Virus record (IMG/VR): IMGVR_UViG_3300037471_001511
Location: 1-64,000 of that record
DNA length: 64,000 bases
Reading direction: 5' to 3' (one strand)
From: a virus
Taxonomy: Duplodnaviria > Heunggongvirae > Uroviricota > Caudoviricetes
Positions within the stretch are counted from its first letter, which is position 1, and each line of letters opens with the position of its first letter. Shown here piece after piece: positions 1,570 through 60,542 of this stretch. Both the position numbers and the translations under genes were made by a program. The notes beneath the pieces were generated by a model that ran no database searches, was not told the DNA's origin, and saw only the letters and a list, made by a program, of their open reading frames with translations.

Positions 1570-1582
1570 GTTCCAGTGGAAC
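1570..1582. promoter_or_regulatory. GTTCCAGTGGAAC palindrome (member of recurrent motif family)
   Basis: perfect GTTCCA-N-TGGAAC in the 60-bp gap upstream of the resolvase/MTase/exonuclease operon. Confidence 0.5.
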
Positions 1583-1625
1583 CGAGCAGTCTTTTCACCC
1601 AAGACTGATAGCGTTCGGTATCCCG

Positions 1626-2063
1626 GTGTTCATGGTCAAGAACACCGGCAAGCCTTCGGAAGAGATTTTCGACAGCCACTGGCCGCTGCGCTACGGCAAG
1701 CGCGCTTGGGTGTTCAAGTTCACCGACTCCGCCGAGGCCACCGGCCAGAACAAGCGGATCACCAAGGTCAAGGCCCAGCCCAGCGACCGCGTCGTGGTCT
1801 GCAACGGGCGCACCATGTTCGCCGAGGTGAAGTCGACGTGGGACGCGTTCCGCTTCGACTTCAGCCTGCTGCGCCGGACGCAGAGCGCCATGGCCCGGAT
1901 GATCATGGTCGCCGGGGGCGAGTATTACGTGTACGTCCACGCGCTGGCCTTGGACCGATGGTTCTGTGTTCCCTACCGGACCATCCTGCAGACCAAGGAC
2001 GTGGGCCGCGCCTCACTCCGCTGGGAAGAGCTGCGCGGGCTCGAGTGGGACTGCGCGGCATGA
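1626..2063 (+). CDS. PD-(D/E)xK nuclease, Hjc-like Holliday junction resolvase (putative)
   Basis: PSDRVVVCNGRTMFAEVKST matches the D..(I/V)(I/V)A..NG....(I/A)E(V)K(S)(T) core of archaeal-type Hjc resolvases; 4-bp ATGA overlap with the downstream MTase. Confidence 0.5.
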   Translation: MFMVKNTGKPSEEIFDSHWPLRYGKRAWVFKFTDSAEATGQNKRITKVKAQPSDRVVVCNGRTMFAEVKSTWDAFRFDFSLLRRTQSAMARMIMVAGGEYYVYVHALALDRWFCVPYRTILQTKDVGRASLRWEELRGLEWDCAA

Positions 2064-3346
2064 GGTTCGCGACGGTCTGCTCAGGGGTTGAGGCCGTCAG
2101 CCTCGCGTGGGAGCCGCTGGGCTTCACGCCGGTGTTCTTCAGCGAGAACGCCAAGGCGCCGAGCAAGGTGCTCAAGCACCACTGGCCGCACGTCCCGAAC
2201 CTCGGCGACATGACCCAGATCGACGGCCGGGCGTGGCGCGGCCAGGTCGACGTGCTGTGGGGCTCGACGCCCTGCCAGAGCTTCAGCCTCGCCGGCCGGC
2301 GGGCCGGTCTGGCCGACCCGCGGGGCGGTCTGACCCTGAAGTTCGTGGACCTCGCCGACGAGATCGACCCAGCCTTCGTCTGCTGGGAGAACGTGAAGGG
2401 GGTGCTCAGTGACAAGCACAACGCTTTCGGATGCCTTCTCGCTGGTCTGGCCGGAGAAGATGTGCCGCTGGTCCCGTCAGGGACCAAATGGTCGAACGCT
2501 GGTTATGTGCTTGGACCCCAGAGAGCAGTCGCGTGGCGGCTCTTCGACGCCGAATACGCAGGCCTGGCGCAACGACGCGAGCGTGTCTTCCTTGTCAGCT
2601 GTCCTCGAGACGGGGCCGATCCCCGAGAGGTACTATTTGAGCGTGACGGCCTGCGTCGGGATCATCCGCCGAGCCGCGAAACGGGGACGGTCGTTGCCGC
2701 TCTTACTGCTCGCGGCGTTGGGGTCGGTGGTCCTGACCTCGCTCACGCCCAAGCAGGACATCTGCTCCCTGTTGTCGCTGTCCGCGGCGAAATAACCCAC
2801 CCCCTGCGCGGCGAAAGCCACGACGGCGGCGAGGACGGTCTCGGCAAGGGTACGCCGATCGTGGCGTTCTCCTGCAAGGACGACGGCGGCGACGCGGCCG
2901 GCGACGTGGCTCCGACGCTCAGGGCCATGACCCACGAGGGGTCGCACGCCAACGCAGGCGGTCAGCTGGCGGTCGCCTACGCCGTCGCCAGCCGTGGCCG
3001 GGACGACGGCGCCACCCTCGAGCTGGGCGGCGAGGTCGCCAACAGCCTGCGGGCGGCGGACGGCGGCGGCTCCCGTGAGCTGGTGCTGATCGCCGAGGCG
3101 CCCCTGTTCCAGAAGGTTCCGGTCACGCCACAGACGTTGGTGACGGCCGCACGGCTGGTCAGGGCGCGCGTTCGGCGGCTCACGCCGCTCGAGTGCGAAC
3201 GCCTGATGGGCTTTCCCGACAATCACACGCTGGTGCCGGGGATGGCCGACGCCCCCCGCTACAAGATGTGCGGCAACAGCGTGGCCGTTCCCGACGTCCG
3301 GTTCATCGGACAGGGCATCAAGAAGGTGGGGCTATGCAAGACGTAA
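2060..3346 (+). CDS. DNA (cytosine-5)-methyltransferase, orphan
   Basis: motif I VCSGVEA, motif IV GSTPCQSFSLAG, motif VI WENVKGVLS, C-terminal GNSVAVP (motif X); variable target-recognition region in the middle; start ATG 2060 in frame with track ORF 1706..3346. Confidence 0.9.
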   Translation: MRFATVCSGVEAVSLAWEPLGFTPVFFSENAKAPSKVLKHHWPHVPNLGDMTQIDGRAWRGQVDVLWGSTPCQSFSLAGRRAGLADPRGGLTLKFVDLADEIDPAFVCWENVKGVLSDKHNAFGCLLAGLAGEDVPLVPSGTKWSNAGYVLGPQRAVAWRLFDAEYAGLAQRRERVFLVSCPRDGADPREVLFERDGLRRDHPPSRETGTVVAALTARGVGVGGPDLAHAQAGHLLPVVAVRGEITHPLRGESHDGGEDGLGKGTPIVAFSCKDDGGDAAGDVAPTLRAMTHEGSHANAGGQLAVAYAVASRGRDDGATLELGGEVANSLRAADGGGSRELVLIAEAPLFQKVPVTPQTLVTAARLVRARVRRLTPLECERLMGFPDNHTLVPGMADAPRYKMCGNSVAVPDVRFIGQGIKKVGLCKT

Positions 3347-3894
3347 TGGTGGACATCGAGACCACGGGCACCGACCCGTGCCACACCTCGATCATCCAGC
3401 TCTCAGCGGTAAAGTTCGACTACGAGACCAGCCAGATCGGCGACTCGTTCGACATGTGCCTGTTCCCGCTGCCCGAGCGGTTCTGGGACGAGGACACCCG
3501 CGCGTTCTGGAACAAGAACAGCGAGGTGCTCGAGAGCATCCTGCACCGTGCCCAGGATCCGGCCGCGGTGATCCACGCCTTCGTGCAGTGGGTCCGCGAC
3601 GGCGGCAACGGCCAGCCGATGCGGCTCTGGGCCAAGCCGGCCACGTTCGAGCAGCCGTTCCTGGCCAGCTACTTCCGCCGCTTCGGCCTCGACAACCCGT
3701 TCCACTACCGCTTCACCATCGACCTGAACTCCTTCGTCCGCGGCATGCAGGGCGACCCCGGCGCCGAGCCGCTGGAGAAGAAGATCCCGTTCCAAGGCAA
3801 CATGCACGACGCGCTGGACGACGTGCTCCACCAAGTGAAGGTCGCGCTGATGGCCCGACACATGGTCGGGGGCGGCGCCGATGCGACTGCCTGA
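3334..3894 (+). CDS. DEDDh-type 3'-5' exonuclease (DnaQ-like)
   Basis: Exo I VDIETTG, Exo III HDALDD; ATG 3334 overlaps the MTase stop. Confidence 0.75.
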   Translation: MQDVMVDIETTGTDPCHTSIIQLSAVKFDYETSQIGDSFDMCLFPLPERFWDEDTRAFWNKNSEVLESILHRAQDPAAVIHAFVQWVRDGGNGQPMRLWAKPATFEQPFLASYFRRFGLDNPFHYRFTIDLNSFVRGMQGDPGAEPLEKKIPFQGNMHDALDDVLHQVKVALMARHMVGGGADATA

Positions 3895-4339
3895 CTGGCT
3901 GAAGGAGCGTCTGTTCAGTAGCGCGTTCGACGCGACCTGGCGCGACCCCGACCTGCTGATCGGGCCGGAGAACAACCCCTACCTGCGGCGCTGGTGGCTG
4001 GTCCCACGCAACCCGTTCCTGAACGTCTACCTGCACAACATCCGCAGGTCGGACGACGCGACCCGCGGCCTGCACGATCATCCATGGTGGTCGGTCAGCG
4101 TGCTGCTGAAAGGCAGCTACTACGAGATCGTGCCGCTGAACCCGCGCAACCCGAGGGGGCGGACGCAGCGCCTGTTCTGGCGATCAGGCTCGGTGATCTT
4201 CCGCGGCGCCAAGCACGCCCACCGGCTTGAGGTCACGCTTCCCAAGGCGAACGTCTGGACCCTGTTCATCACCGGTCCCCGCTTCCGCCAGTGGGGCTTC
4301 TGGGAACCCGAAGGATGGAGGGCGCACGATGCTCTATGA
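3881..4339 (+). CDS. hypothetical protein, possible cupin-fold metalloprotein
   Basis: GLHDHPWW (HxH) and a downstream AKHAHRLEV histidine, reminiscent of cupin metal-binding motifs; weak. Confidence 0.4.
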   Translation: MRLPDWLKERLFSSAFDATWRDPDLLIGPENNPYLRRWWLVPRNPFLNVYLHNIRRSDDATRGLHDHPWWSVSVLLKGSYYEIVPLNPRNPRGRTQRLFWRSGSVIFRGAKHAHRLEVTLPKANVWTLFITGPRFRQWGFWEPEGWRAHDAL

Positions 4340-4538
4340 CCTGAGCGCGTACCGTGAGGCTCGCGTCGAACCGCCTCCGGCCCCTCTGCCGGCCGAGGAC
4401 GAGGTGCTCTGCACCGTCACGATCACTTCCGAAGGGGTGCAGGTGTGGGTGTCCGACCAGGTCGCCACCCTGCCCCAGCGCGCCTGGCTGGCGCGCCGGA
4501 TCAATCAAGCGAAGGACATGCTGACATGGCGCGACTGA
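4329..4538 (+). CDS. hypothetical protein (69 aa)
   Basis: ATG 4329 in frame with track ORF 4227..4538; overlaps upstream stop. Confidence 0.35.
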   Translation: MLYDLSAYREARVEPPPAPLPAEDEVLCTVTITSEGVQVWVSDQVATLPQRAWLARRINQAKDMLTWRD

Positions 4539-5678: not shown

Positions 5679-7749
5679 GCTGGACTACTCGGTCACCTTC
5701 GACAAAGGACCGAACGGCCCCCGCACGCTGCGGGCGTCGCTGAACTTCACCACCGGGTTCACCGTGATCAGCGGCCCGAACGAGGCCGGCAAGAGCTTCG
5801 TCTTCGAGATGATGCGCTTCGCCCTGTTCGGGACGCAGGCGCTGCGGGGCGCCGCTGAGGACTACAAGAGCCTGCGCATGTCGGCCGAGGTCGACATCCG
5901 CGGCGAGCGCTACCGGATCGACCGCAACATCGACAAGGCCACGCTGTACCGGGGCGGCCAGGTCGTCTGCAACGGCGTGCGCGCGGTCAACGACAAGATC
6001 GTCCGCATCCTGGGCTTCGGCCTGCAGGTGTTCGACGTGGCCTGCTCGGTGAACCAGGGCGAGGTCGAGCGCCTCGGCGCCATGGCGCCGGCGGAGCGCA
6101 AGAAGATGGTCGACGGCGTGGTCGGGATCGACACGCTGGACGTGGTGGCCAAGTGGTTCGTCGACGAGGCCAAGGTGTTCGACCGGGAGGCGGAGGCGAT
6201 CCGGTCCCGGCTCGTGGTCCCGGTCCGTCCGGCCGTGCCTGACGGCTATCGGTCCAGCGCCGAGATCCCGCTCGAGACCGCCCGCGCCCAGGCTCGCGAG
6301 CTGGCCGAGCTGACCGGCTGGTTGGCGCACGCCCGGCCCAAGCCGGCCGAGCCGACCTGCAAGGTCGATCTGCCGGCGGTGAACCTGACGGTGTTCGCCA
6401 ACAAGCGCCGCAAGCTGCGCGAAGAGATCGCCGACCTCGAAGCCGTGCCGCACGCGGTGGCGTTCTACACCGACGCGCAGCTCGACGAGGCGGAGACCGA
6501 CTGGCAGGCGTACGTCGAGTACGAGAACGCCCAAGCCTGGCTGCGCAACAACCCGGCGCCGCGGGCGACCGGCGAGCTGCAGCTCGACGTGTTCGAGGAC
6601 GACTGGACGGCGATCCACAACGTCGAGACGCGCGCCTCGCTCTGCCAGCGGATCAAGGCGCTGCAGGAGAAGGGCTTCAAGCTGTGCCCGCACTGCGGCG
6701 GCGAGATCCCGCTCGAGGAAGACGCCATCGAGCAGCTGGTCCAGCAGCACGACGCCCTGCCCGTGCCGGACAGCGGCCGGGCGCCGCCCACGCCGCCGCT
6801 CACCCCGGCCGAGATCGCGGTCGAGCGCCAGCGGCTGAAGACCTGGGACGCCGCGAAGGCCGAGCAGATGCGGGCCGTCGCGGAGATTCCCCGGCCGGGG
6901 ATTCCGAAGGAGGACATCCCGGTCCACCGCACGGTGATCAAGCAGGCCCAAGCTTGGAAGGACGCGCAGGGTCTGCTTGCGGCGACGCGGCATCAGTTCG
7001 CCGAGATGCCCGACTACGAGACCATGCTGATCGAGCGGCAGGCCTACGAGGAAGCCCTGCCCCGCTACCGGCAGGAGCTGGCCGACTGGGAGGCGTGGAA
7101 CACCGAGCGGCAGAAGAAGGAGCTGCGGCGCACCCAGCTGGCCGGCGCCGAGGCGACGCTCGCCGCGCTCGAGGCCGAGCACCGGACCGCCGTGGCGTTC
7201 GAGCAGCAGCTCGCCGTCTACGAGGCCGCCCGGCAGGCCTATGAGACCGGGGAGCGGGACGCCAACGACCTGACGGCCAAGGCCGAGCGCTACCGGAAGG
7301 TCCGCGACGTGATGGCGGTGCTGCGCTCGCTGATCAAGCAGCACCTGCTGCCCAGCCTGAACACGGTGGCCAGCGCGCTGCTGGCCGTCATGACCGGCGG
7401 CCAGCGCCGGTCGATCTACGTGGACGAGGAGTTCGACGTGCTGGTCGACGGCCAGCGCCTGAACACCCTGTCCGGCTCCGGCAAGGCCTGCGCCAACCTC
7501 GCGCTGCGCATCGCGCTCGGCCAGGTGCTGACCAACCGGGTGGTCTCGGTGCTGCTCGCCGACGAGATCGACGGCAGCATGGACGACTTCCGGGCCGAGA
7601 AAACGTCACAGATCCTATGGAACCTTACAAATAGCATCTCCCAGGTGCTGCTGGTCTCCCATAAGCAAATCGAAGGCGAACATCACGTTCGTATCGGAGG
7701 CTTAAGTGGGGACGGAGAACCAGCAGATCTCCTTGGATCGGCTGCGTGA
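5668..7749 (+). CDS. sbcC: SbcC/Rad50-like SMC ATPase
   Basis: Walker A GPNEAGKS near N-terminus, CPHCGG zinc hook in a coiled-coil middle, C-terminal LLADEIDGSMDD (Walker B/D-loop). Confidence 0.85.
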   Translation: MFHKLDYSVTFDKGPNGPRTLRASLNFTTGFTVISGPNEAGKSFVFEMMRFALFGTQALRGAAEDYKSLRMSAEVDIRGERYRIDRNIDKATLYRGGQVVCNGVRAVNDKIVRILGFGLQVFDVACSVNQGEVERLGAMAPAERKKMVDGVVGIDTLDVVAKWFVDEAKVFDREAEAIRSRLVVPVRPAVPDGYRSSAEIPLETARAQARELAELTGWLAHARPKPAEPTCKVDLPAVNLTVFANKRRKLREEIADLEAVPHAVAFYTDAQLDEAETDWQAYVEYENAQAWLRNNPAPRATGELQLDVFEDDWTAIHNVETRASLCQRIKALQEKGFKLCPHCGGEIPLEEDAIEQLVQQHDALPVPDSGRAPPTPPLTPAEIAVERQRLKTWDAAKAEQMRAVAEIPRPGIPKEDIPVHRTVIKQAQAWKDAQGLLAATRHQFAEMPDYETMLIERQAYEEALPRYRQELADWEAWNTERQKKELRRTQLAGAEATLAALEAEHRTAVAFEQQLAVYEAARQAYETGERDANDLTAKAERYRKVRDVMAVLRSLIKQHLLPSLNTVASALLAVMTGGQRRSIYVDEEFDVLVDGQRLNTLSGSGKACANLALRIALGQVLTNRVVSVLLADEIDGSMDDFRAEKTSQILWNLTNSISQVLLVSHKQIEGEHHVRIGGLSGDGEPADLLGSAA

Positions 7750-8104
7750 GATCTACGAAAAACACGGCGGCAATCTCAATCTGATCGCTGCTGAACTCGG
7801 GATTTCACAAGGGGACATTCAAGAGAAGTTCACGACGCCGCCGACGCCGCCGGCGCGGGGACGCACCCCGCCGGCGGACCTGGGGTCTGAGAGCCTGCGG
7901 CAATTCATCGTCGCGTACCGCCACGCCGACTGTCCGGTGTGGAGGAAGGAAGACCAGAAGAAAATCGAAGAGGCCCGCGCCCTGTACTGCGCCGGCACGC
8001 ACGAGGTCTTCCAGGGCCGCGACCAGAACTGGTTCATCCTCTACTGCCAGCCCCGCAAGAAACGTTGCGGCGCTCGCAAGTGGTACACGGCTTTCGGGGA
8101 ATAG
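7706..8104 (+). CDS. HTH plus Cys-cluster protein (GTG start), in a lower-GC island
   Basis: N-terminal LNLIAAELGISQGDIQEK HTH-like; C-terminal C..C..C cluster; RBS GGAGG upstream; local GC about 50%. Confidence 0.45.
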   Translation: MGTENQQISLDRLREIYEKHGGNLNLIAAELGISQGDIQEKFTTPPTPPARGRTPPADLGSESLRQFIVAYRHADCPVWRKEDQKKIEEARALYCAGTHEVFQGRDQNWFILYCQPRKKRCGARKWYTAFGE

Positions 8105-8110: not shown

Positions 8111-8344
8111 ATGATGCGTACAGATCCGCACGGTCCGCTGAACGCGAACCAGCGCGCGCTCATGACGAAATTCACCCGCGAGACGCTCGAGGGGAAGAAA
8201 GAGCCGCAGCGCGACTACTCAAATCGCAAGCCCTACCGCAACAAGAACCAGAAGAAGGTGGCCCGCATGACGGCCGCCCGCGGTCAGGACGGCGTCTGGC
8301 GCTCCAACGCGCCCACGATGCAGCACCCCGAGGTGCGCTCATGA
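8111..8344 (+). CDS. hypothetical basic protein (77 aa)
   Basis: Lys/Arg-rich; lower-GC region. Confidence 0.35.
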   Translation: MMRTDPHGPLNANQRALMTKFTRETLEGKKEPQRDYSNRKPYRNKNQKKVARMTAARGQDGVWRSNAPTMQHPEVRS

Positions 8345-8610
8345 CCCACAATCTAGCGGACACCAGCCGCTCGGCGTTCGAACAGAACGCTGAGCGGCTG
8401 CAGGCTACGCGCGCGCGGACGCTGGCAGAGCTTCGGCGACGCCCGCAGACCGCATTCGAACTGGCCGAGAGCCTGCACGAGCCGTTCTACAACGTGCAGC
8501 CGGCCTGCTCGAAGCTGCGTTCCGACGGCCAGATCAAGGACTCCGGCGAGCGCCGGCCGTCGCCGCGCAGCGGTCTGCCCGCCATCGTGTGGAAGGCGGT
8601 GGCGCCATGA
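8341..8610 (+). CDS. hypothetical protein, possible winged-helix
   Basis: ATG 8341; TAFELAESLHEP...KLRSDGQIKDSGERR resembles MarR-like wHTH. Confidence 0.4.
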   Translation: MTHNLADTSRSAFEQNAERLQATRARTLAELRRRPQTAFELAESLHEPFYNVQPACSKLRSDGQIKDSGERRPSPRSGLPAIVWKAVAP

Positions 8611-9161: not shown

Positions 9162-9394
9162 TGGACCGCTACTTCATCCCGGCCGCCAAGGCGGTCGCGT
9201 ACGTGATCGGCCTCGTGGCCGCACTGATCTTTCTGTTCCGGAACGTCGTCGGCCCCCTGTTCGGCTCGACCTCCGATCTGGGCGTGCTCGGCGCCGTGGG
9301 CGCCGCGATGCTCGGCCTGATCGGCTTCGCGTGGGCGGTCCGCGCCGCCGTCCGTGACCTTCGGCGCGAATTCCAGAAAGCCAACAAACAATGA
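9161..9394 (+). CDS. small membrane protein (77 aa)
   Basis: two hydrophobic helices; ATG 9161 overlaps preceding stop. Confidence 0.45.
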   Translation: MDRYFIPAAKAVAYVIGLVAALIFLFRNVVGPLFGSTSDLGVLGAVGAAMLGLIGFAWAVRAAVRDLRREFQKANKQ

Positions 9395-10227
9395 AACGCA
9401 TCATCACGTCTGTGGCGGCCCTCGGGGCCGCCCTGTCCCTGAGCGCCTGCATCGGCCAGACCGTCGACCCCGGCAACGTCGGGGTGAAGATCAAGCGCAT
9501 CGGCTCGGGCGCCGGCGTCCAGGCCGAGCCGCTGCCGGCCCGCTGGCACGCGCTGGGCTGGGGCGAGGACATCGTCCAGTACCCGATCATCCAGCGCACC
9601 TACCCGTTCGCCCGCGAGAAGTCGGCCGACGGCTCGACGGATAACGAGGAGCTGGTGTTCTCCGACAACACCGGCCTGCCCATGACCGCCGACGTGGCCC
9701 TGACCATGCAGGTCGACCCGGCCGCGGCGCCGAAGCTGTACACCAAGTACCGGCTGACCTTCGACCAGCTGCTGCTGGGACCGATCCGCAACGACCTGCG
9801 CTCGGCCATCGCCGCCGAGACCGAGAAGGTCGGCGTGGCCGATCTGTACTCCGGCGGCCGGCAGGCGGTGATCCACCGCGCGCTGGCGACGATCCAGCCG
9901 AAGTGGGCGGCCGAGGGCGTCCACATCAGCCAGCTCGAGTGGATCGGCTCCATCCGCTACCCGGAAGCGATCCTGCAGCAGATGCAGGAGAAAACCCGGC
10001 TCGAGCAGGAAGCCATCGCCGCCAAGGCGTTGGCCGCCAAAGCCGAAGCGCTGGCCGCCGCCAAGGTCGCCGAGGCCAAGGGCGACGCCGAGTCGACCCG
10101 GATCCGCGGCGAGGCGCTGCGTTCCAACCCCCAGGTGCTGCAGCAGCAGGCCATCATGAAGTGGAACGGCGTGCTGCCGACGGTGACGAGCGGCGGCGCC
10201 GTCCCGTTCGTCAATGTCAAGCCGTGA
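9391..10227 (+). CDS. SPFH/band-7 domain lipoprotein
   Basis: lipobox LSLSAC; SPFH-like core; C-terminal Ala/Glu-rich coiled coil as in HflK/C and prohibitins. Confidence 0.55.
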   Translation: MKRIITSVAALGAALSLSACIGQTVDPGNVGVKIKRIGSGAGVQAEPLPARWHALGWGEDIVQYPIIQRTYPFAREKSADGSTDNEELVFSDNTGLPMTADVALTMQVDPAAAPKLYTKYRLTFDQLLLGPIRNDLRSAIAAETEKVGVADLYSGGRQAVIHRALATIQPKWAAEGVHISQLEWIGSIRYPEAILQQMQEKTRLEQEAIAAKALAAKAEALAAAKVAEAKGDAESTRIRGEALRSNPQVLQQQAIMKWNGVLPTVTSGGAVPFVNVKP

Positions 10228-10325
10228 GAGGTCTAGTGGATCCTCAGAGTTAATCACTCTCGGCACGGTCGGGACGACCTAGCGTCATAGGTTCTTCCCG
10301 ACCCCTCCCGCAGGAGATCTCTCCC

Positions 10326-12656: not shown

Positions 12657-12702
12657 GTTCTACTGGAACCCGATACTTTCCTCCCCGACATCCACTGGAA
12701 TG
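12657..12702. promoter_or_regulatory. two motif-family half-palindromes (TTCTACTGGAACC, TCCACTGGAAT)
   Basis: located between the nrdJ terminator and the xis/int genes. Confidence 0.4.
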
Positions 12703-12751
12703 AACAACTCGCCGCCCGCAGGCCGGCGAGCGCCGAGTCATGGTCGCGTGC

Positions 12752-13054
12752 ATGGATCCGACTACGCTCCCGCCACGCCTGACGCGCTCGGAAGTCCTTG
12801 CTCTGGCGAGGATCAGCGACAACACGCTGCGCAAGCACATCCGCGCCGGTCGGTTCCCTGCGCCAATCGACCGCGGGAAAGAGCAACTCTTCGCGCGCGA
12901 CCAGGTACTCAAAGTGATACAATCACGCCAGCAAGTACCTGATGTACCTGCGCTTTCGGAGACAGAGTATGACCACCAGAGGCAAGAAGCGATCCGCCTC
13001 GAATTCGAAAGGATCGCCCGCCGAAGTCGAGCGAAGGTTTCTCGATCAACTTGA
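12752..13054 (+). CDS. xis: excisionase/AlpA-like HTH protein
   Basis: SEVLALARISDNTLRKHIRAGRFPAPI resembles AlpA/phage excisionase HTH; 3' end overlaps int, so the true extent is uncertain. Confidence 0.45.
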   Translation: MDPTTLPPRLTRSEVLALARISDNTLRKHIRAGRFPAPIDRGKEQLFARDQVLKVIQSRQQVPDVPALSETEYDHQRQEAIRLEFERIARRSRAKVSRST

Positions 13055-14599: not shown

Positions 14600-14672
14600 T
14601 GGACGCGGTCGGGATCGAACCGACGGCCGAGGACTTTAAGTTCCCCTGCTCTCACCACTGAGCTACGCGCCC
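14600..14672 (-). tRNA. tRNA-like gene (73 nt, no encoded CCA) with canonical acceptor, D and T arms but ambiguous anticodon loop
   Basis: reverse complement GGGCGCG-TA-GCTC-AGTGGTGA-GAGC-A-GGGGA-ACTTAAA-GTCCT-CGGCC-GTCGG-TTCGATC-CCGAC-CGCGTCC-A; the anticodon stem has a mismatch in either register, giving UUA or UAA. Confidence 0.65.
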
Positions 14673-15331: not shown

Positions 15332-15516
15332 GACGCGAGCCCCATCCGCCTTGCGATCAGGTAGCCCAGTTCCGTCGCGGCGTGCGGGTCGTACTCTTCC
15401 TCGACCGTGACGCGCCGGCCCCGCCGACCGCGGTTCCGAGCCGCGGCCCGTTCGCGGGCGTAGTTCCACTCGATCTCGCAGCCCAAGGCCCACGGGCAGC
15501 GCCTATTCTTCGTCAC
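15328..15516 (-). CDS. hypothetical small protein (GTG start)
   Basis: high GC3, RBS GGGAGGG upstream. Confidence 0.35.
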   Translation of the reverse strand: MTKNRRCPWALGCEIEWNYARERAAARNRGRRGRRVTVEEEYDPHAATELGYLIARRMGLAS

Positions 15517-18515: not shown

Positions 18516-18805
18516 GACGCCCGCCGATGCTCCCGTTCGGACAGCGCCCGCATCAGCTCGCCCGTGGTGCGGCCCATCTCGAGCAGCAGCATGTTGGGGT
18601 TCTGGATCACCGTATCGAAATCGAGCGACGTGGTGAGCGCCCCCACGACACCGCCGTCGGCGCCCATCCGGCAGCAGACGACCTTGAACCCCTCCGGCTC
18701 AATCTCAAGCGTGGTCCGGTAGATGTTGCCGCCCTTGATCTGCGCTTCGCGCACGGCTGCGCCCAGGAACGCGTAGGCTTCGGCCACCGACGGTATGTGC
18801 GTCAC
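18512..18805 (-). CDS. hypothetical protein (GTG start)
   Basis: RBS GGGAAAGAAG upstream of GTG. Confidence 0.35.
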   Translation of the reverse strand: MTHIPSVAEAYAFLGAAVREAQIKGGNIYRTTLEIEPEGFKVVCCRMGADGGVVGALTTSLDFDTVIQNPNMLLLEMGRTTGELMRALSEREHRRAS

Positions 18806-24862: not shown

Positions 24863-25067
24863 GGCGCACCTGGCATACGGCCGAGCAGCCGTAACATCGG
24901 GGTGCCCTTGACCCGGCGATTATCTTTGATGATCTAATGGAAGCGGACCCGCCCTACCCAGCATTGGGCAGGCGGGTCCGGGGGTCTCTCGACGCCGTGA
25001 CTAGACGGGGTCGAAGGATCGCTCTTATGGTGAAGACCGTCCCTCAGGCAACGGGGACGTGCGATCC

Positions 25068-42982: not shown

Positions 42983-43061
42983 GGAGGGGCTCCGATACGG
43001 AAAGGGCCTGCGCCGCGAATTTCGCGTGGCGCAGGCCCCCCTTCAAGGACAAGCCTCGGAG

Positions 43062-43078
43062 CGGTTCCAGTAGAACCG
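43062..43078. promoter_or_regulatory. motif copy CGGTTCCAGTAGAACCG
   Basis: between the major tail gene and the G/GT genes. Confidence 0.4.
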
Positions 43079-43874: not shown

Positions 43875-43973
43875 GGCGGAGCCCTCCGAGATCTCTGGCG
43901 AGTATCAGGAGGGTATTTGCCGACGGCCTATTCTGCTGTACATGATGGAGAATAATGAAAAGGACGGAACTAT

Positions 43974-44406
43974 GAGCAAGCAGCGCAACATCAGCTTCAT
44001 GGTCCCGAAGTATCTACTGGAACAAATCGAAAATCGGGCCAGGCTGAACGGCCGCAAGCGCAACGCCGAGGTGCGCTACCTCGTGGCCATGGCGCTCGAC
44101 CTTGTCGGGGACGAGGACTTCCGCCTCGACCTGCCGCCCGCCGCCGAGGTGCCGTGGGTCCACATCCCGGCCGGCTTCAAGCACGAGACGTTCTCCCAGA
44201 TCGAGGAGCGCGCCGAACGCTTCGAACGCTCCGTCGGCCGCGAGATCGTCCGCCTCGCCGGCTACGCGCTGCAGGAGACCGCCAACCGCGACATCAAGCT
44301 GCTCGCAGACCTGATGCAGCACCAGGATCCAGCAGGGCCTGCACGTTCAGAAACCGGACCGAGCGCATTTCCGCCTTCGCCGGAGGCGACACTTCCTGCG
44401 GCGTGA
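43974..44406 (+). CDS. ribbon-helix-helix (Arc/MetJ-like) DNA-binding protein on the opposite strand within the tail/head module
   Basis: ISFMVPKYLLEQIENRARLNGRKRNAEVRYLVAMAL; possible second RHH-like unit (FERSVGREIVRLAGYAL); AT-richer 100-bp upstream region; 3' end overlaps a convergent gene, so true stop is uncertain. Confidence 0.5.
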
Positions 44407-50117: not shown

Positions 50118-50194
50118 GCGGCCAGATAAATGACCGCACGACAGGTTGAAGCAACAGCTTCACTCTATGACGACTGATGAGAACTGATGATCTA

Positions 50195-50431
50195 CTAGAA
50201 ATTTCCGAGCAGAGACTGCCCGGCGAACGCCGCCCGGGGCTTCAGCACCGCGAACGCCGCGACCTTGCTGACCATGAACTTGTCAGATGGATTCAGCACC
50301 GCGAACGCGGTGAACTTGGTCACCCCCAGGCCGCTCATGCCCAAGACCGCAAAGGAGGTCACTTTGGTGACCACTTCGCGGTCGCTGGGCGGCCCGAGGA
50401 CCGCAAAGCTGGAGAGCTTTGAAACGTCCAT
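50195..50431 (-). CDS. small protein made of four copies of the same VSK..FAVL repeat found at the gpL-like N-terminus
   Basis: VSKLSSFAVLGPP, VTKVTSFAVLG, VTKFTAFAVLNP, VSKVAAFAVLKP. Confidence 0.5.
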   Translation of the reverse strand: MDVSKLSSFAVLGPPSDREVVTKVTSFAVLGMSGLGVTKFTAFAVLNPSDKFMVSKVAAFAVLKPRAAFAGQSLLGNF

Positions 50432-53253: not shown

Positions 53254-54756
53254 TTATGAGGTCTGATGATCCAGTAGATCGAGCGCGGCTTTCACCTTGT
53301 TGTCCCGCGTCTTCTTCGCGCCGTCTGAAACCATGCTCTTGCCGACGGTGCCGCCGTTGACGTTGGAACTGACGTTGTCGGTGTTCACGCCGGCCGGCTG
53401 GGGTTGCATGAAGTTGGTGCCCGACAGCGGCGGCGCGCCGTCGTTGGGCAGGCGGCCGTACATCTGCAGGGTGTACTCCTCGTCGGTGATGATCCCGCTG
53501 CTGAGATCCGCCAGCAGGCGGGTCGACTTCAGCACCCGCTGCGGCTCCAGCTCCAGTTCCGGGCGCAGTTCGGCCGGGGCGAAATGCACCTCGACGAAGC
53601 CGGGGATGCCGTTGGCGTTGAGCAGGAAGGTCAGCAGCTGGTCGAAGAACTGCTTCAGCGGCACGTTCAGCTCGTCGGCGGTCATGGCCGCGATCCGCGC
53701 CTCGACCGAGGCCATGTTGACCCCGCCCTGCCCGCCGCGGCCGATCACCGTGGCCATGGTCTTCAGGGCGGCCTGGTTCTGCGCGTTCAGCACCTCGATC
53801 ACCGAGGTGATGTCGAGCCCGGCGCCCGGGTTCTTCTCGTTGATCATCGACGGCTCGACGCTGTCGAAGTGGACCACCGGCTCGTCGGCGCGCACCGTGC
53901 TCCACGCCTGGGCGATGGCGGTGAGCTGGTCCTTGGCCCACTTGGTCAGTTCTTCCGGCTGGTCGCGGACGTTGGCCGGCGCGTTCTTGAGCAGCACCTC
54001 CTCGACCACCTTGACCGAGATCCGGGGGAAGCCGGTCACGTTCATGATGCGGTAGAGATCGTTGATCACCTGCTGGCGGGCGGCCACGATGTTGATGGCC
54101 GAGACCAGGCTCGAGGTCGGGTAGATGTCGAGCGGGTCGCGGCGATGGAAAGCCACGAAGAAGCTCGGGATGTCGAGCATCACCGGGTCGGATTTGCCCG
54201 GGATCTGCTGGCCGGGCTTCAGGACGCCGGCCTCCTTCTCGAACCACTTGATGGTGTCGATGTCGACGAGCTGGATCCGGTTGGGGACCAGCTTCTTGTC
54301 GAACACCAGTTCGCCCGCGATGGCCCCGCGCAGCAGCAGCATGTAGCGCAGGTCGGCGCACAGGTTGGGCAGGTCGAACTTGAGCTGGAAGCCCTGCGTG
54401 TAGTCGACCGGCCGGGTCAGGATGGTGACCGCCTTGTTCAGTTCGAGGGTGGCGGCCGGGTCGATCTGGCCGTCCGGGTCCTTGACCAGCCAGGTCATGG
54501 GCGTGTTGGCCAGGGTCAGGTGACCGTGGACCGCGGCCGACACGTCCGGGTCGCCCTTGAACAGATCCCGCAGCAGTTCGCGGGAGGTCTTGATCGGCCG
54601 GTCGTCGTACAGCGAGGCGATGTGCTCTCGGTACTGCGGCGCGGTCAGGACCTGGTCCTTCTGCGTCGGCTGGAAGGTCGGGGTGATGGACTGCGCAGCC
54701 TTGGGCTGGCGCTTCACGCCGATCGCGGTGAGGACGGAGTCGAAGACGCTGGCCAT
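53254..54756 (-). CDS. portal protein
   Basis: 500 aa; start ATG 54756 overlaps terminase stop (TGATG); position immediately after large terminase. Confidence 0.7.
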   Translation of the reverse strand: MASVFDSVLTAIGVKRQPKAAQSITPTFQPTQKDQVLTAPQYREHIASLYDDRPIKTSRELLRDLFKGDPDVSAAVHGHLTLANTPMTWLVKDPDGQIDPAATLELNKAVTILTRPVDYTQGFQLKFDLPNLCADLRYMLLLRGAIAGELVFDKKLVPNRIQLVDIDTIKWFEKEAGVLKPGQQIPGKSDPVMLDIPSFFVAFHRRDPLDIYPTSSLVSAINIVAARQQVINDLYRIMNVTGFPRISVKVVEEVLLKNAPANVRDQPEELTKWAKDQLTAIAQAWSTVRADEPVVHFDSVEPSMINEKNPGAGLDITSVIEVLNAQNQAALKTMATVIGRGGQGGVNMASVEARIAAMTADELNVPLKQFFDQLLTFLLNANGIPGFVEVHFAPAELRPELELEPQRVLKSTRLLADLSSGIITDEEYTLQMYGRLPNDGAPPLSGTNFMQPQPAGVNTDNVSSNVNGGTVGKSMVSDGAKKTRDNKVKAALDLLDHQTS

Positions 54757-56489
54757 CAGATGACCCTTTCGAGGCGGCGGCCTTTGCCGGGGAGCTGGCC
54801 GAGCGTGGCGAGGGGAGCGGTCCGGACCCCGAGCAGCCCGACGAGCGTGCGCAGCTCGGTCTCGGACTGGGCGAGGATGATGTTGCGGATCTTCACGCTG
54901 GCCTTGAGCATCACCAGCGAGTGCATGAAGTGGTCGGCCCCGGTGGTCTTCTCCCAGGTGGCCGGCTTCTCGTCCGTCTCGATGCGGACCATGTCGCACA
55001 TGTGCTCGATCAGCACCGAGGCGAGCCCGCCGTAGCCGCGCATCTCGAAGCTGCGGTTCAGCACCGCCTTGACCACCGCGTCGATGGCGGCGGTGCGGTT
55101 GATCTGCACGAAGTTCAGGTTGTCGTACTCGTCGTGGACCAGGTTCACGAGCGGGGCGCCGCGGTACTCCACCGGCAGGACCACGCCCCTGCTCAGGATC
55201 CGGATCCGGTCGGCGGTGGGCGTGTACGGGTGGCGGTCCACCGCGCCGGCCACGATGTTGTAGCTCCGCAGCAGCTGCTCGATGCGGTCCTCAATCTTCT
55301 CCGAGGGCACCTGCTCGAAGTGGAACGGGTCGACGTCGTCACCGCGGGGCACGCCCAGCACGAGGTGGCAGGTCTTGCCCATGTCGCAGCCCAGCGCGAC
55401 GGGAACGGTGGATCCGACCTCGACGCGTTCGGGACCGCGCATGATCAGCTTGACCTTGTCGGGCTCGAGCTTGGAGTTGCCGTCCGAGTAGGTCTGGCCG
55501 AGCACGGTGTTGTACCAGCCCTTGAGCTGGTTGAGCTGCTTCATGCGCAGCAGCTGCTGCAGGATGTACTGGACGGTGATGCGTCCGTGGCAGGGCGAGA
55601 ACGGCGACACCCGGTAGCCGCGGCCCATTCGCGCCGGGTAGGCGGCGACCCACTCCCGCTTGCCGGGATCCCAGAGGTCGAGCTTGGCCGAACAGTGCTC
55701 GCACTTCACGTAGCAGCCGTCGAGGTCGATGCCGGCCACGCCGTCGGCGTCCAGATCGTCGAGCTTTCCGTCGCCCGCGTAGCCGGGCAGGTGCAGGAAG
55801 CCCATCTCGAACCCCGGCGCCTGCCAGTGCCCGCAGCCGTCGCAGCGGACCATGTACTGGCGCTGGTCGGAGGCCTGGTAGGCGGCGTCGATGCCGAAGC
55901 CCGGGTGGGTCGGGGTCGAGAACCGCTGAGTGATCTTGAAGTCGGAGTTCTGCAGGCGCGACTGGTACAGGCCGATCATGGCTTGGTCGGACAGGTCCAG
56001 CTCGTCGTGGAACAGGATGTCGGCCGGTGTCGAGGTGGCGTCGCCCTCGGTCATGCCCAGGATGTGGGCGAAGGAGCCGTCGATCTCGTAGAGTTCCATC
56101 GACCGCGAGGGCTTGGTCTCGTTCAGGGTCGAATTGAACACCGGCTGCGAGACCACGGGCTTGATGCGGGTCTTGCTGTTCTTCTTGAACATCTTCTCGT
56201 CGGGGAAGGTGAAGATCCCAGACGTCGAGCGGTGCCGCTTCAGGAAGGCGAGGAACTTGCGGATCTGCGTTTCGGTCAGGCCGATCTGCGAGCATTTGAT
56301 CACCGCCATGTCGGGGTGCATGTCGTCGACGATCGCCTGCTGGAACTCGAAGCCCTTGAACCCGAACGGCCGCACGCCCAAGCGCGTGTTGGCGGCCAGC
56401 CACTGCGAATAGGTCATCGTCGCGCCGTCCAGCGGGTAGCGGGCGCGCAAGTCCTGATGGAACTGCTCGAGGTGGGGGTTCCGGGCCAT
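54756..56489 (-). CDS. terL: terminase large subunit (lambda gpA-like)
   Basis: 577 aa; CDGCGHW...CEHCS zinc-finger-like pairs as in GpA family; first gene of leftward morphogenesis operon. Confidence 0.7.
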   Translation of the reverse strand: MARNPHLEQFHQDLRARYPLDGATMTYSQWLAANTRLGVRPFGFKGFEFQQAIVDDMHPDMAVIKCSQIGLTETQIRKFLAFLKRHRSTSGIFTFPDEKMFKKNSKTRIKPVVSQPVFNSTLNETKPSRSMELYEIDGSFAHILGMTEGDATSTPADILFHDELDLSDQAMIGLYQSRLQNSDFKITQRFSTPTHPGFGIDAAYQASDQRQYMVRCDGCGHWQAPGFEMGFLHLPGYAGDGKLDDLDADGVAGIDLDGCYVKCEHCSAKLDLWDPGKREWVAAYPARMGRGYRVSPFSPCHGRITVQYILQQLLRMKQLNQLKGWYNTVLGQTYSDGNSKLEPDKVKLIMRGPERVEVGSTVPVALGCDMGKTCHLVLGVPRGDDVDPFHFEQVPSEKIEDRIEQLLRSYNIVAGAVDRHPYTPTADRIRILSRGVVLPVEYRGAPLVNLVHDEYDNLNFVQINRTAAIDAVVKAVLNRSFEMRGYGGLASVLIEHMCDMVRIETDEKPATWEKTTGADHFMHSLVMLKASVKIRNIILAQSETELRTLVGLLGVRTAPLATLGQLPGKGRRLERVI

Positions 56490-56535
56490 CCAAGTGACGG
56501 AAGGGCGAAAACCTACTGAAAGCAAGGTTTGATAC

Positions 56536-56565
56536 TTCCACTGGAACCAATGGTTCCAGTAGAAC
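56536..56565. promoter_or_regulatory. 30-bp compound palindrome TTCCACTGGAACCAATGGTTCCAGTAGAAC in the divergent region between terminase and the primase operon
   Basis: two overlapping motif copies sharing a CCAATGG centre. Confidence 0.55.
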
Positions 56566-59579: not shown

Positions 59580-59813
59580 TCACGTCGAAGCGGCGGTGAA
59601 CGTCAGGTAGTAGGCCTTGCCGGGCTCGAACTGGATGGCGGCGTCAGGGTTGTCGATCGTCATCCAGAGTTCGCCCGACGGCGTGGCCTTCGTGAACCGC
59701 TTGTTCTCCTCGTTCTCGCCGAGCGCCCCCTCATAGACGGGGATCAGCTTGACCTTCTTCGAGTAGCCGTAGTCCTCGACAGAAATGCAGGTGAATTTCG
59801 CGCGCACGGACAT
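59580..59813 (-). CDS. hypothetical protein (77 aa)
   Basis: protein-like composition. Confidence 0.45.
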   Translation of the reverse strand: MSVRAKFTCISVEDYGYSKKVKLIPVYEGALGENEENKRFTKATPSGELWMTIDNPDAAIQFEPGKAYYLTFTAAST

Positions 59814-59956
59814 GCGTGTGCTCCTATGGCTTTCAAGGTTTGGGGGAGGCCTCCCCAGTCTCTGTCGGCCCGGAATTGGATCGTCGGGCGAGACGGGCTG
59901 GGGATCAGCTCGAACGGCCTAGCACGGCCTCGGTCGGCGCGGTCGGAAACCTATTC

Positions 59957-59979
59957 GGTTCCACTGGAACACTGGTTCC
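59957..59979. promoter_or_regulatory. motif copy GGTTCCACTGGAAC plus partial ACTGGTTCC
   Basis: 145 bp upstream of the 59813 gene start. Confidence 0.45.
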
Positions 59980-60101
59980 GGACTTGCGGACCTTTTCCCG
60001 TAATGACCACCTCGCTGGCACGAGGCCCACCCCACGGGTAGCAGGTCCGCCTTGATGCCCGCCCTGTCCAGACATGGGCCGCGGGGAGTCCCTGGGGTGG
60101 C

Positions 60102-60302
60102 TTAGGTGTGTTGGTCGAGAAAGTTGCGGAGCGCTTCCAGCTCGAGCTGGTCGATCCTGTGCTCGAGCAGCTCGTATTCGGTCTCGACGGCGAGGACCGC
60201 GCCGCCCTCGGGGCGGATCGCGAGGCTGAAACCGCTGTCTTCGGGCCGGCCTGGCCACCCGTAGGTGTCGCCCGACACCACGCCGAACTGGATCTGGCTC
60301 AT
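60102..60302 (-). CDS. hypothetical protein (66 aa)
   Basis: ATGA-coupled to upstream tiny gene. Confidence 0.4.
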   Translation of the reverse strand: MSQIQFGVVSGDTYGWPGRPEDSGFSLAIRPEGGAVLAVETEYELLEHRIDQLELEALRNFLDQHT

Positions 60303-60400
60303 CGGTTGGCCACCCAAGTGCAGAAAGCGAGCGCCACAAGGCCCATCACCCAGACGATGCCTTCGATGGCGGCGATTTTGACGTCGTTGTCGGTCTTCAT
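60299..60400 (-). CDS. tiny membrane protein (33 aa)
   Basis: MKTDNDVKIAAIEGIVWVMGLVALAFCTWVANR. Confidence 0.3.
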   Translation of the reverse strand: MKTDNDVKIAAIEGIVWVMGLVALAFCTWVANR

Positions 60401-60530
60401 GCTCGGCTCTCCGGCCTCGGTCGGCGGGGTACGGCTCGGGACCGTCCCCGCCGGCCTCGGTGCGTTGCCAGGGAGGCTACACAGCGAAGCTAGACCCGAA
60501 AAACGCGATTGGGGGCCGGAATCGTCACTA

Positions 60531-60542
60531 TTCCACTGGAAT
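60531..60542. promoter_or_regulatory. motif copy TTCCACTGGAAT followed by an AT-rich stretch
   Basis: in divergent intergenic region 60401-60835. Confidence 0.45.

Follow-up and report, generated by a model that had tools for sequence, protein, structure and literature searches.

A recurrent palindrome beside the starts of most non-early gene blocks in a Caulobacter-type phage

Dispersed regulatory sites in other phages

In the temperate phage phiC31, ~18 dispersed 17-bp inverted repeats (CIRs) occupy intergenic DNA near promoters and terminators and are bound by the c repressor. The window, the whole 64,000-nucleotide stretch of viral DNA analysed here, shares with this arrangement ~18 dispersed, largely intergenic palindromic sites. 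In contrast, phiC31 is an actinophage, its repressor is unrelated and its repeats serve lysogeny specifically, whereas the element family of the window reaches a lytic relative. The window sites also resemble the stoperators of cluster A mycobacteriophages (L5 gp71 type), 20–30 dispersed 13-bp sites, mostly in short intergenic gaps, whose consensus varies among related phages (PMC6550527; PMC9283540). However, stoperators are asymmetric, transcription-oriented, mostly away from promoters and bound by a monomeric repressor, whereas the window sites are palindromic, unoriented and upstream of promoters, with a variant in the lytic relative.

In P2/P4 (activators Ogr, Delta) and Mu (Mor, C), activator-dependent late promoters have a dyad-symmetric site that lies upstream of the -35 or abuts it, at about -55 for Ogr and -43 for Mor/C. 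Each of several late operons with a weak core promoter carries a copy, as in the window, where five promoters have centres at -52 to -59. However, there are 4 sites in those systems, whereas the ~18 of the window extend to replication, xis-int and intragenic positions and vary in their distance to the -35; a scan of ~30 window proteins found none of Ogr or Mor/C type. In the host group of the window, the phage-derived GafY/GafZ regulator of the Caulobacter GTA binds ~20 sigma-70 promoters that are dispersed and whose -35 elements are degenerate, and GafZ, with a sigma-like HTH, requires a near-perfect palindrome (PMC11150451). Unlike the window element, this palindrome (GCGCCCG-CTGGCGC) is single and lies between the -35 and the -10, and GafY binds far upstream and requires IHF.

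Ribbon-helix-helix (RHH) proteins are mostly repressors. The Mnt operator of P22 reads GGTCCAC-G-GTGGACC; the alternative half-sites TGGA and TAGA of the window recall the Mnt and Arc boxes, and its half-sites lie 2 bp nearer to each other than those of the Mnt operator. Mnt is a tetramer that binds a palindrome, and its half-site GTGGACC compares with sTGGAACC in the 7-1-7 layout of the window (PMC2726951). The window also encodes an Arc-like RHH protein. However, P22 has one operator for each repressor against ~18 genome-wide sites in the window, the window protein is a single chain of tandem RHH domains, and its DNA-facing residues are N/S/M rather than H/N/R. In a PDB search with this protein, P22 Mnt was the only RHH match, at a non-significant E of 0.58.

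Sites and linked promoters in the window

The palindrome recurs ~18 times across this Caulobacter-type phage and, for most gene blocks other than early ones, adjoins the start signals. The exact 13-mer GTTCCAnTGGAAC occurs 3 times in the window against 0.01 expected from dinucleotide-preserving shuffles, the 11-mer TTCCANTGGAA (TTCCAnTGGAA) 7 times against 0.04, the 13-mer with up to 2 mismatches 16 times against 1.9, and the relaxed 9-mer core TCYAnTRGA 20 times against 1.09. By our own gene calls, 14 of these 20 cores fall in the non-coding DNA, which is 7.9% of the window (binomial P ~9e-12). A previous sequence-only reading had claimed enrichment beyond chance, a bias to intergenic gaps at operon starts and a dyad symmetry indicative of an oligomeric DNA-binding regulator; this much of its interpretation stands, and its GcrA-like binders are poorly supported. 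All copies that it listed exist, with coordinates off by at most 1–2 nt, and weaker sites at 10230, 24931, 44011, 50189, 53268 and 62725 are added here. Several copies are intragenic. The coding matches at 19323 and 48176 are probably the 1 or 2 expected by chance; that at 19323/19325 is a coding coincidence (Ile-Tyr-Trp-Met). The sites are dyad-symmetric, and asymmetric variants show no consistent orientation relative to transcription; sites are listed without strand:

1570–1582: site GTTCCAGTGGAAC, 6 nt past the stop of 1317–1565, 44–50 nt upstream of the resolvase-like gene
1626/1632: start of the resolvase-like gene, which heads the replication/recombination operon
10230–10242: weaker site GGTCTAGTGGATC, 2 nt past the stop of 9391–10227 (core TCTAGTGGA 4 nt past it); ribonucleotide reductase (RNR) gene (10326) ~90 nt downstream
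12657–12669: site GTTCTACTGGAAC, directly past the RNR terminator, distal of the two sites preceding xis (12740) and int
12689–12701: site CATCCACTGGAAT, proximal of the xis/int pair, centre ~-45 from the xis ATG
24931–24943: weaker site GATCTAATGGAAG, centre ~-75 from ATG 24862 (142-aa gene, first in the tail-fibre operon)
25069–25081: site GTTCCAGCGGAAC, left of a 22-bp-spaced pair between the PhoH-like gene 3' end and the tail-fibre operon
25091–25103: site GTTCCACTGGAAC, right of that pair
27791–27803: site GTTCTACTGGATA, 1 nt from the stop of 27805–28185 (minus strand), ~59 nt upstream of ATG 27738, the start of the first lysis-block gene
34588–35107, minus strand: NlpC/P60-like tail gene
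34838–34914: cluster of two full (34838–34850, 34902–34914) and two half sites inside that gene
43064–43076: site GTTCCAGTAGAAC, 3 nt past the major tail gene stop (core 5 nt past it), before a terminator hairpin; on the minus strand, 20 nt lead to TTGAAG and 17 nt more to GAAATT in the loop of that hairpin (hairpin 43005–43040)
43972–44406, plus strand: Arc/Mnt-like gene, running antisense inside the late operon and encoding two tandem RHH domains
44011–44023: site TATCTACTGGAAC, inside codons 13–17 of the Arc/Mnt-like gene
50189–50201: weaker site overlapping the stop of 50195–50338 (minus strand), centre ~-78 from the scaffold/protease ATG (50117)
53268–53280: site GATCCAGTAGATC, within the final codons of the portal gene; TTGCGT follows 16 nt downstream, at -37 from ATG 53216
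56489–56525, minus strand: inferred core promoter of TerL, with TTGCTT at -36, a weak -10 and the ATG where transcription is expected to start
56535–56565: paired sites (56535–56547, 56553–56565), 18 bp apart, between the divergent TerL and primase-operon promoters; centres -52/-70 from the TerL ATG and -68/-86 from ATG 56627
59958–59970: site GTTCCACTGGAAC, between the small leftward genes 60102–60302 and 59580–59813
60530–60542: site ATTCCACTGGAAT, left edge of the AT-rich divergent region 60543–60790
62725–62737: degenerate site GTTCTATTAGAAA, in the AT-rich intergenic region 62602–62952; L132 and L148 have similar AT-rich intergenic elements

Two composite arrangements differ in part from their earlier description. 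The TerL/primase copies do form a compound palindrome (31 bp, with central GAACCAATGGTTC); they are separated by 5 bp and do not overlap. The four-copy cluster exists, as two full and two half sites. Because its two full copies stand in different reading frames, it does not derive from a peptide repeat, and it is possibly an internal regulatory node.

Each intergenic site lies at the upstream edge of its gap. At the readable promoters the site is 11–37 bp (11, 16, 20 or 37 bp) upstream of a sigma-70-type -35 (TTGnnn), which precedes the ATG by 36–37 nt, a leaderless-mRNA geometry from which we infer leaderless transcripts. These promoters have a recognisable TTGnnn and poor -10 hexamers; no convincing -35 was found for the starts at 27738, 24862 and 12740. 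Site centres fall at ~-52 (TerL, 6 phages) and at -56 to -59 (1632, 53216, 27738), upstream of the -35. The sites adjoin sigma-70-type promoters on their upstream side, which is more than mere position in a gap. The earlier exclusion of LexA, CtrA and sigma-54 sites is borne out, and inspection of the sites for an ECF-type reading (GGAAC as -35) found no conserved -10 at 16–17 nt.

The element in related phages

A search of related phages, as had been suggested, located the element at matching positions in relatives whose TerL is 55–68% identical: the TerL-primase gap, upstream of the scaffold gene, past the major tail gene and inside the antisense Arc/Mnt-like gene. At least 6 related phages retain the core. 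CCAnTGG is constant and the outer bases vary from phage to phage (GTT/AAC, TAT/ATA, GAT/ATC, ATAT/ATAT), so that the element is best read as a family, T-C-Y-A-n-T-R-G-A, with flanks specific to each phage. In the window and in relatives L132, L149, L150 and L148, the TerL pair is spaced 18 bp and the proximal core ends 11 nt before the TTGnnn -35. The scaffold-gene site (50189 in the window) aligns in five phages, the window and four others; the window, L132, L149 and L003 share the site past the major tail gene, which in L150 is a CCCAGTAGA variant. In the lytic Caulobacter phage Seuss (host C. crescentus), TCCAnTGGA is missing and the element is represented solely by an AT-rich variant, found at the late promoters of TerL and scaffold. 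The motif is absent from a prophage in a Brevundimonas genome.

Both halves of the Arc/Mnt-like protein match Arc-like models (Pfam Arc, E 1.4e-5; PHROG Arc-like for the second half). The gene was found in every relative whose fetched locus reaches that point; its carriers are the window, L132, L003, L007, L149, L150, Seuss and L001. In five phages the motif occupies the same Leu-Leu-Asp/Glu codons, with CTA after a T-ending codon. In the window, Tyr-Leu-Leu-Glu is written with rare codons as TAT-CTA-CTG-GAA; CTA makes up 1.7% of Leu codons, and TAT-CTA-CTG has P ~0.001 under the phage's own codon usage. In L007 the site is in the 5'UTR of the gene. Whatever the binder, the Arc/Mnt-like gene is a conserved target. 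The beta-strand residues of its product show no covariation with the motif among the phages compared: Seuss has the N/S/M of the window, yet lacks TCCAnTGGA, and L149 has S/T/E, yet its core is that of the window.

Candidate regulators and modes of control

The palindromes are very probably promoter-linked sites of a phage transcription factor. Because they stand just upstream of the readable promoters, one protein would gate most of the non-early units read. A single phage-encoded, symmetric oligomer (dimer or tetramer) acting on middle and late promoters is the best explanation as a whole, at slightly under an even chance. Such a phage-wide regulon would comprise the promoters of the replication/recombination operon, RNR, xis-int, the primase operon and TerL, and further those of the post-portal genes, scaffold/capsid, tail assembly, lysis and tail fibre. 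The leading candidate for the binder, tentatively, is the Arc/Mnt-like protein. Made from its own strong promoter, it would recognise the 7-1-7 site GGTTCCAnTGGAAC(C) in a manner resembling that of Mnt at its operator, and the copy within its gene would provide feedback. Against this candidate, the true binder could be encoded in the ~10 kb of the source contig outside the window. Control may be negative, with a temporal or lysogenic gate that titration or another factor would relieve; this sign is weakly inferred, positive control from ~-52 is nearly as likely, and centres at -52 to -80, upstream of the -35, are more typical of activators than of repressors. Binder and sign, taken jointly, are unlikely to be both correctly named. 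The type of control would be a familiar one, in a phage family not previously studied.

The sites could instead be upstream activating sequences, from which an early phage protein brings host RNA polymerase to middle and late promoters that are weak, in the way of P2 Ogr or Mu Mor/C; this is a possible reading to which we give lower weight. Besides the site centres beyond the -35 and the poor -10 elements, it draws on the blocks at 14.8–21 kb and 60.8–63.6 kb, which lack the motif except for the degenerate 62725; this absence fits because the products of these small-gene blocks would switch on all else. The AT-rich version at late promoters of lytic Seuss also agrees with it; this occurrence indicates that the element is not lysogeny-specific. 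The site just past the strong arc promoter would silence the antisense gene at the onset of late transcription, and GafY, which activates ~20 promoters, sets a precedent in the host's group (PMC11150451). However, no activator was identified among the window proteins examined, the distances to the -35 are out of helical phase, and one conserved site is downstream of a promoter, a repressing position. The binder would be another factor, the HTH protein at 7706–8104 (also present in Seuss) or the sigma-region-4/LuxR-type multi-HTH proteins at 18802–19991. The latter had been called GcrA-like and proposed as binders; Pfam instead gives Sigma70_r4_2, HTH_23 and a weak GerE (LuxR-family). The 159-aa sigma-r4 protein among them matches only itself among 5.8 billion proteins and no relative of it was found in the early regions of related phages, whereas the core is conserved, and no convincing site accompanies either gene.

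It is improbable that the prophage immunity repressor XRE/HTH_3 (21013–21645) uses the sites as operators to keep all lytic units silent in the lysogen, as happens with stoperators or CIRs. The phage does carry xis and int, its sites are spread over both arms, including structural genes and xis-int upstream, flanks vary among relatives as among heteroimmune phages, and 434-type HTH_3 dimers bind ~14-bp palindromes. Seuss lacks int, the XRE gene and the entire 12.7–27.5 kb block along with the canonical motif. However, neither the vicinity of the XRE gene nor the 152-bp gap upstream of it contains a site, and the presumed early operons are motif-poor (one degenerate site at 60.8–63.6 kb, one probable chance coding match at 14.8–21 kb). 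Sites lie upstream of promoters rather than over them, without orientation bias; L149, a 74-kb rIIB-carrying contig, has the canonical motif, and XRE homologues occur only in L148 among the relatives fetched. That the phage exploits a transcription factor or nucleoid protein of its host (Caulobacterales) as the binder is less probable still. Phages from different samples share CCAnTGG, and the phage binder is so far putative; however, phage-specific and internally consistent flanks would be unusual for a conserved host factor, two relatives of the same host range (Seuss, the Brevundimonas prophage) lack the motif, and it is not known to match any alphaproteobacterial site (LexA, CtrA, FixK, sigma-54, EcfG). 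A role outside transcription (packaging, replication-origin iterons, partition, recombination or methylation sites, an RNA-level element) is very improbable, with ~18 copies scattered at gene boundaries and promoter spacing conserved. The TerL pair must act on DNA, because it lies between two divergent -35s, in DNA not expected to be transcribed; a 6-1-6 palindrome alone cannot close a hairpin, and a Rfam search matched no family. In favour of such a role, a pair adjoins the terminase gene and one degenerate copy (62725) is in an AT-rich, possibly origin-like region.

The palindrome and its conservation

The palindrome recurs in the window well beyond expectation, as the sequence-only reading had proposed: GTTCCANTGGAAC occurs 3 times for 0.01 expected, TTCCANTGGAA 7 times for 0.04, and the palindrome with up to 2 mismatches 16 times for 1.9. 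Comparison of relatives allows a conserved core, TCYANTRGA, to be recognised, with 20 copies in the window (1.09 expected). Fourteen of these lie in non-coding DNA, which makes up 7.9% of the window by gene calls (P ~9e-12); three more fall within an NlpC/P60-like tail gene and the Arc-like gene, one coincides with the final codons of the portal gene, and those at 19325 (Ile-Tyr-Trp-Met) and at 48178 probably arose by chance. The coordinates of the earlier reading are correct to 1-2 nt, and the dyad symmetry it described stands, the consensus being a 6-1-6 or 7-1-7 palindrome. The 4-copy cluster that it reported (34838-34914) is intragenic; its two full copies lie in different reading frames, so that selection acts on the DNA. 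With respect to the downstream gene, the asymmetric variants TCTACTGGA and TCCAGTAGA point either way. A tail, CnGAcAGT, is found to the right of sites 1570, 25091 and 56553 and of no others, and no consistent function was found for it at these three sites. The weaker sites 50191, 53270, 24933 and 10232 carry a 3′ extension, T(c/a)(a/t)TCA(c/g), always directed towards the downstream gene, as do sites in four loci from related phages (L132 11421, L003 13873, L007 8181, L004 4337); this extension resembles the WATCACW heptads of ω-type RHH sites.

The window is a siphophage-type genome segment with a GC content of ~66%. Among its genes are those for DNA polymerase, ribonucleotide reductase, XRE and TerL, together with a recombination/replication module, xis-int beside tRNA-Leu, a long run of small leftward genes, the genes for tail fibre, lysis, tail and head, and a divergent primase operon. 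The closest non-identical TerL relatives are at most 68% identical, and the sole close isolate is the lytic Caulobacter phage Seuss (TerL 64% identical), which has the structural and replication modules in common with the window and shares none of 12.7-27.5 kb. Neither the motif nor the regulation of Seuss is described in any paper found. The tRNA-Leu(TAA) gene (14600-14672, minus strand), ~380 nt downstream of the integrase gene, is only 73 nt long and lacks a long variable arm; it could belong to the attachment region or be a tRNA of the phage itself.

The motif persists in related phages as a core at matching places, and the exact 11-mer of the window is absent from all relatives examined. 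In the gap between TerL and primase, two core copies lie 18 bp apart in the window, L132, L149, L150, L148 and L151. Before the scaffold/protease gene (MKQI...), the element likewise stands at the start of the intergenic gap in the window, L132, L003, L007 and L004 (alignment A1), and it directly follows the stop codon of the major tail gene in the window, L132, L149 and L003, and in L150 as the variant CCCAGTAGA. The outer bases are uniform within a phage and differ between phages: GTT/AAC in the window, TAT/ATA in L132, GAT/ATC in L149, ATAT in L150 and TACCCACTGTAT in L148. In Seuss the canonical core is not enriched (1 copy, 2.4 expected), and an AT-rich counterpart, T(A/G)TAsTATATATGCA, lies exactly at the TerL and scaffold promoters. 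Nor is the core enriched in the Brevundimonas prophage L001 (one coding match, 0.6 expected). A pattern scan of viral-contig DNA with GTTCCANTGGAACCNGA returned only scattered, mostly low-GC chance matches and tandem repeats with zero relatives, and close-relative scans of viral contigs with the sigma-r4, Arc-like and J-like tail proteins gave no match. A metagenome scan with the TerL alignment found mostly distant relatives (TerL at most 48%; one 2.9-kb fragment at 60%), in none of which core copies exceed chance.

Predicted promoters beside the sites

Promoters were read from the cross-phage conservation of aligned start regions, an E. coli-type promoter scan being uninformative. A TTG lies 35-38 nt before the TerL ATG in the window, L132, L149, L150, L148, L151 and Seuss; before the scaffold ATG in the window, L132, L149, L150, L148, L003, L007 and Seuss; and before the first gene of the primase operon in L132, L149 and L150, where the window has TAGACG. 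Window gene 53216 has a TTG in the same interval. The aligned start regions contain a weak A/T-containing hexamer at -14 to -8 and no Shine-Dalgarno, which, together with the TTG spacing, corresponds to the geometry of a sigma-70-type promoter with a transcript starting from the ATG. Judged from sequence, several units open with a gene whose start is laid out as expected for a leaderless mRNA, a class well documented in Caulobacter. Among the first genes of units, the TTG is at -36/-37 from the ATG at 56489, 53216, 50117 and 56627 in the window and at 5463 in Seuss, where the TerL start is apparently annotated 72 nt too far downstream (MARNP... begins at 5463).

At many sites, the TTGnnn of a -35 element follows at a distance of 11-37 bp downstream. 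At TerL, 11 nt separate the end of the palindrome from the -35 in five phages and 14 nt in L151; the gap is 36-37 nt at the scaffold promoter and 16 nt at the 53216 promoter. For genes 27738, 24862 and 12740, no convincing -35 could be read. The TerL palindrome is centred near -52 and its second copy at -70, and the same pair lies at -68/-86 from the divergent promoter. The pair has a divergent -35 element on either side, and transcription of the DNA between these elements is not expected; the pair would therefore act on DNA and not on RNA. In four phages, the site behind the major tail gene precedes TTGA(G/A)n by 11-20 nt, a -10-like hexamer comes after a spacer of 17 nt, and this hexamer sits in the loop of a terminator hairpin:

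43005-43076, window: sigma-70-like promoter elements within a terminator hairpin
18585-18676, L132: sigma-70-like promoter elements within a terminator hairpin
20147-20224, L149: sigma-70-like promoter elements within a terminator hairpin
15413-15503, L150: sigma-70-like promoter elements within a terminator hairpin

We infer that a transcript starting in the hairpin would be devoid of its 5′ arm and so escape termination, which would explain a promoter-type element upstream of a terminator. Elsewhere, to the right of site 25091 and ~90 nt from it, there is a plus-strand terminator-like hairpin with a T-run (25192-25217, within 25104-25225). The genes flanking 25104-25225 are on the minus strand, and the region could encode a small plus-strand transcript.

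Candidate binding proteins

The window encodes the following DNA-binding candidates:

7706-8104: HTH protein, weak Myb-like HTH
8341-8610: winged-helix-like protein of 89 aa, judged by eye, no Pfam match
12740-13054: Xis
18802-19991: two multi-HTH proteins, Sigma70_r4_2, HTH_23 and weak GerE
21013-21645: XRE protein
32592-33764, minus strand: phosphoesterase with N-terminal HTH
43972-44406, plus strand: tandem-RHH Arc-like protein

The multi-HTH proteins at 18802-19991, at first proposed as GcrA-like candidate binders of the palindrome, are not GcrA; they match Sigma70_r4_2, HTH_23 and, weakly, GerE. The 159-aa sigma-r4 protein found only itself among 5.8 billion proteins, and the early regions of the relatives have almost nothing in common with the window, which argues against this protein reading a core conserved across the family. 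The homologue search with the 89-aa winged-helix-like protein likewise returned only itself. The XRE gene has no site inside or adjoining its 152-bp upstream gap, and among the fetched relatives a homologue occurs in L148 only. The gene at 32592-33764 encodes 390 aa, with an HTH-like N-terminal segment and a metallophosphoesterase/DNA-repair-exonuclease match (phrog_704, E 2e-109); it is located inside the tail module, between a tail-assembly gene and the J-like gene, and has no Seuss homologue.

Of the DNA-binding genes, only the Arc-like gene was found in every relative for which the locus extends that far. The gene is antisense to the late genes on either side and is preceded by a strongly conserved TTGCCG-N17-TATAnn promoter; its product matches Pfam PF03869 Arc over residues 5-39 (E 1.4e-5) and the Arc-like phrog_3178 over residues 75-117. 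The Seuss homologue (KT001914.1 15198-15557, minus strand) is unannotated and falls in a 437-bp annotation gap. The motif occurs at the same Leu-Leu-Asp/Glu codons, xxT-CTA-CTG-GAx, of this gene in the window, L132, L003, L149 and L150. CTA accounts for 1.7% of Leu codons, and 5% of all codons end in T, which gives P ~0.001 for TAT-CTA-CTG in the window. In L007 the motif is found in the 5′ UTR, as is a Seuss-type element, TTTTATGCAC, in Seuss. The Arc-like gene is thus a conserved target, and by the logic of autoregulation its protein is, on sequence grounds, the best candidate for binding the palindrome.

As in the Arc/Mnt systems, the window encodes an RHH protein of this family. Operators of these systems are palindromes with half-sites of TGGA/TAGA type, to which two dimers bind; the half-site spacing of the window's sites differs by 2 bp from that of the Mnt operator. 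Mnt binds as a tetramer to a palindrome with the half-site GTGGACC (PMC2726951), to be compared with sTGGAACC in the predicted site of the window. The only RHH match of the Arc-like protein in the PDB is Mnt, and it is not significant (E 0.58). Counting against the Arc-like protein as the binder, no covariation was found among relatives between the predicted DNA-facing β-strand residues and the motif: Seuss has N/S/M as in the window yet lacks the motif, and L149 has S/T/E yet the same core.

Mode of control and known systems

Whether the sites activate or repress may be argued both ways. Their position upstream of the -35, the weak -10 elements, the scarcity of the motif in presumed early blocks and the fact that a lytic relative also has a member of the element family favour activation of the linked promoters. 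Repression, or a dual switch, is favoured by an RHH binder, by the conserved copy that comes after the strong arc promoter, by the intragenic cluster and by the copies before xis-int; the intragenic copies (34838-34914, 44011) could serve as elongation roadblocks. In its fullest form, the proposal is that the antisense, single-chain tandem-RHH protein encoded inside the late operon would be the master regulator of ~18 mostly leaderless sigma-70-type promoters, an arrangement that we consider improbable as a whole. The regulated promoters would span a family of ~75-85 kb Caulobacterales siphophages and would include those hidden inside terminator hairpin loops, late transcription would be tied to genome copy number by the many operator copies, serving as a titration timer, and the operator flanks would diversify from phage to phage.

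The motif belongs with other phage-wide regulator motifs, among them stoperators, phiC31 CIRs and the late-promoter sites of Ogr or Mor/C. Like stoperators, which number 20-30 dispersed sites with a consensus that differs between related phages, the ~18-20 sites have flanks that differ between the window, L132, L149 and L150. Stoperators are asymmetric, oriented and mostly away from promoters (PMC6550527). The stoperator reading was rejected because the sites form a palindrome, have no preferred orientation and in many cases lie upstream of predicted promoters: unlike the asymmetric 13-bp stoperators of cluster A mycobacteriophages, which keep mainly one orientation with respect to transcription, the consensus is palindromic and its variants occur both ways. 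CI/Cro operators cluster between divergent repressor and early lytic genes and overlap the promoters; the sites here are dispersed, upstream of the -35 and never near the XRE gap, so this reading too was discarded. In the late promoters of Ogr/Delta and Mor/C, a dyad site is fixed upstream of or abutting the -35. Here the distance is constant at orthologous promoters (TerL 11 bp, scaffold 36-37 bp) and differs between promoters (11/16/20/37), and no Ogr zinc-finger or Mor/C activator was matched in Pfam or PHROG among ~30 window proteins (DNA-binding candidates and small unknowns); the source contig extends ~10 kb beyond the window. Inspection of the site architecture upholds the earlier exclusion of the LexA and sigma-54 sites: the GTTC/GAAC arms form an inverted repeat, spaced by 5 bp, in contrast to the alphaproteobacterial LexA box (GTTC-N7-GTTC), and the -12 position reads GT rather than the GC of sigma-54 (TGGCAC-N5-TTGC). 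An ECF -35 (GGAAC) was rejected in the same way, as no conserved element follows 16-17 nt downstream. The comparison with the GafY/GafZ regulators of GTAs is a functional analogy. Some details are unusual, namely the antisense tandem-RHH gene and the predicted promoters in terminator loops.

For the Seuss-related Caulobacter/Brevundimonas siphophages, hitherto unstudied, the analysis provides a regulon map of ~18 sites, the accompanying promoters, mostly of leaderless geometry, and candidate regulators. Should the antisense tandem-RHH protein be the binder, an Arc/Mnt-type protein would be serving genome-wide, which is unusual. The flanks, specific to each phage, form a natural series in which the joint drift of operator and regulator specificity could be followed, and sites and promoters could be used as orthogonal, phage-controlled expression parts in Caulobacter.

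The window's final ORF (63603-63998, plus strand) runs past the window end and has a multi-pass membrane look, judged by eye; it is perhaps an acyltransferase-3-type protein, with lysogenic conversion as a possible role. Another perfect palindrome, TTTCCCCGGCCGGGGAAA, unrelated to the first, is present four times (60790-60807, 61718-61735, 62049-62066, 62861-62878), 17-97 nt upstream of start codons in a rightward small-gene operon. Analogous early-region palindromes are present in L148 (TTTACCGGTAAA), L132 (GGTTACC-N2/3-GGTAACC), L003 (TTTAACsGTTAAA) and Seuss (TTTACCTnAGGTAAA, where ribosome-binding sites are annotated). These may be the sites of a second regulator or RNA hairpins. AT-rich intergenic regions at 60543-60790 and 62690-62810, in a genome of 66% GC, have similar counterparts in L132 (1094-1282) and L148 (3997-4280) and are candidate early promoter or origin regions.
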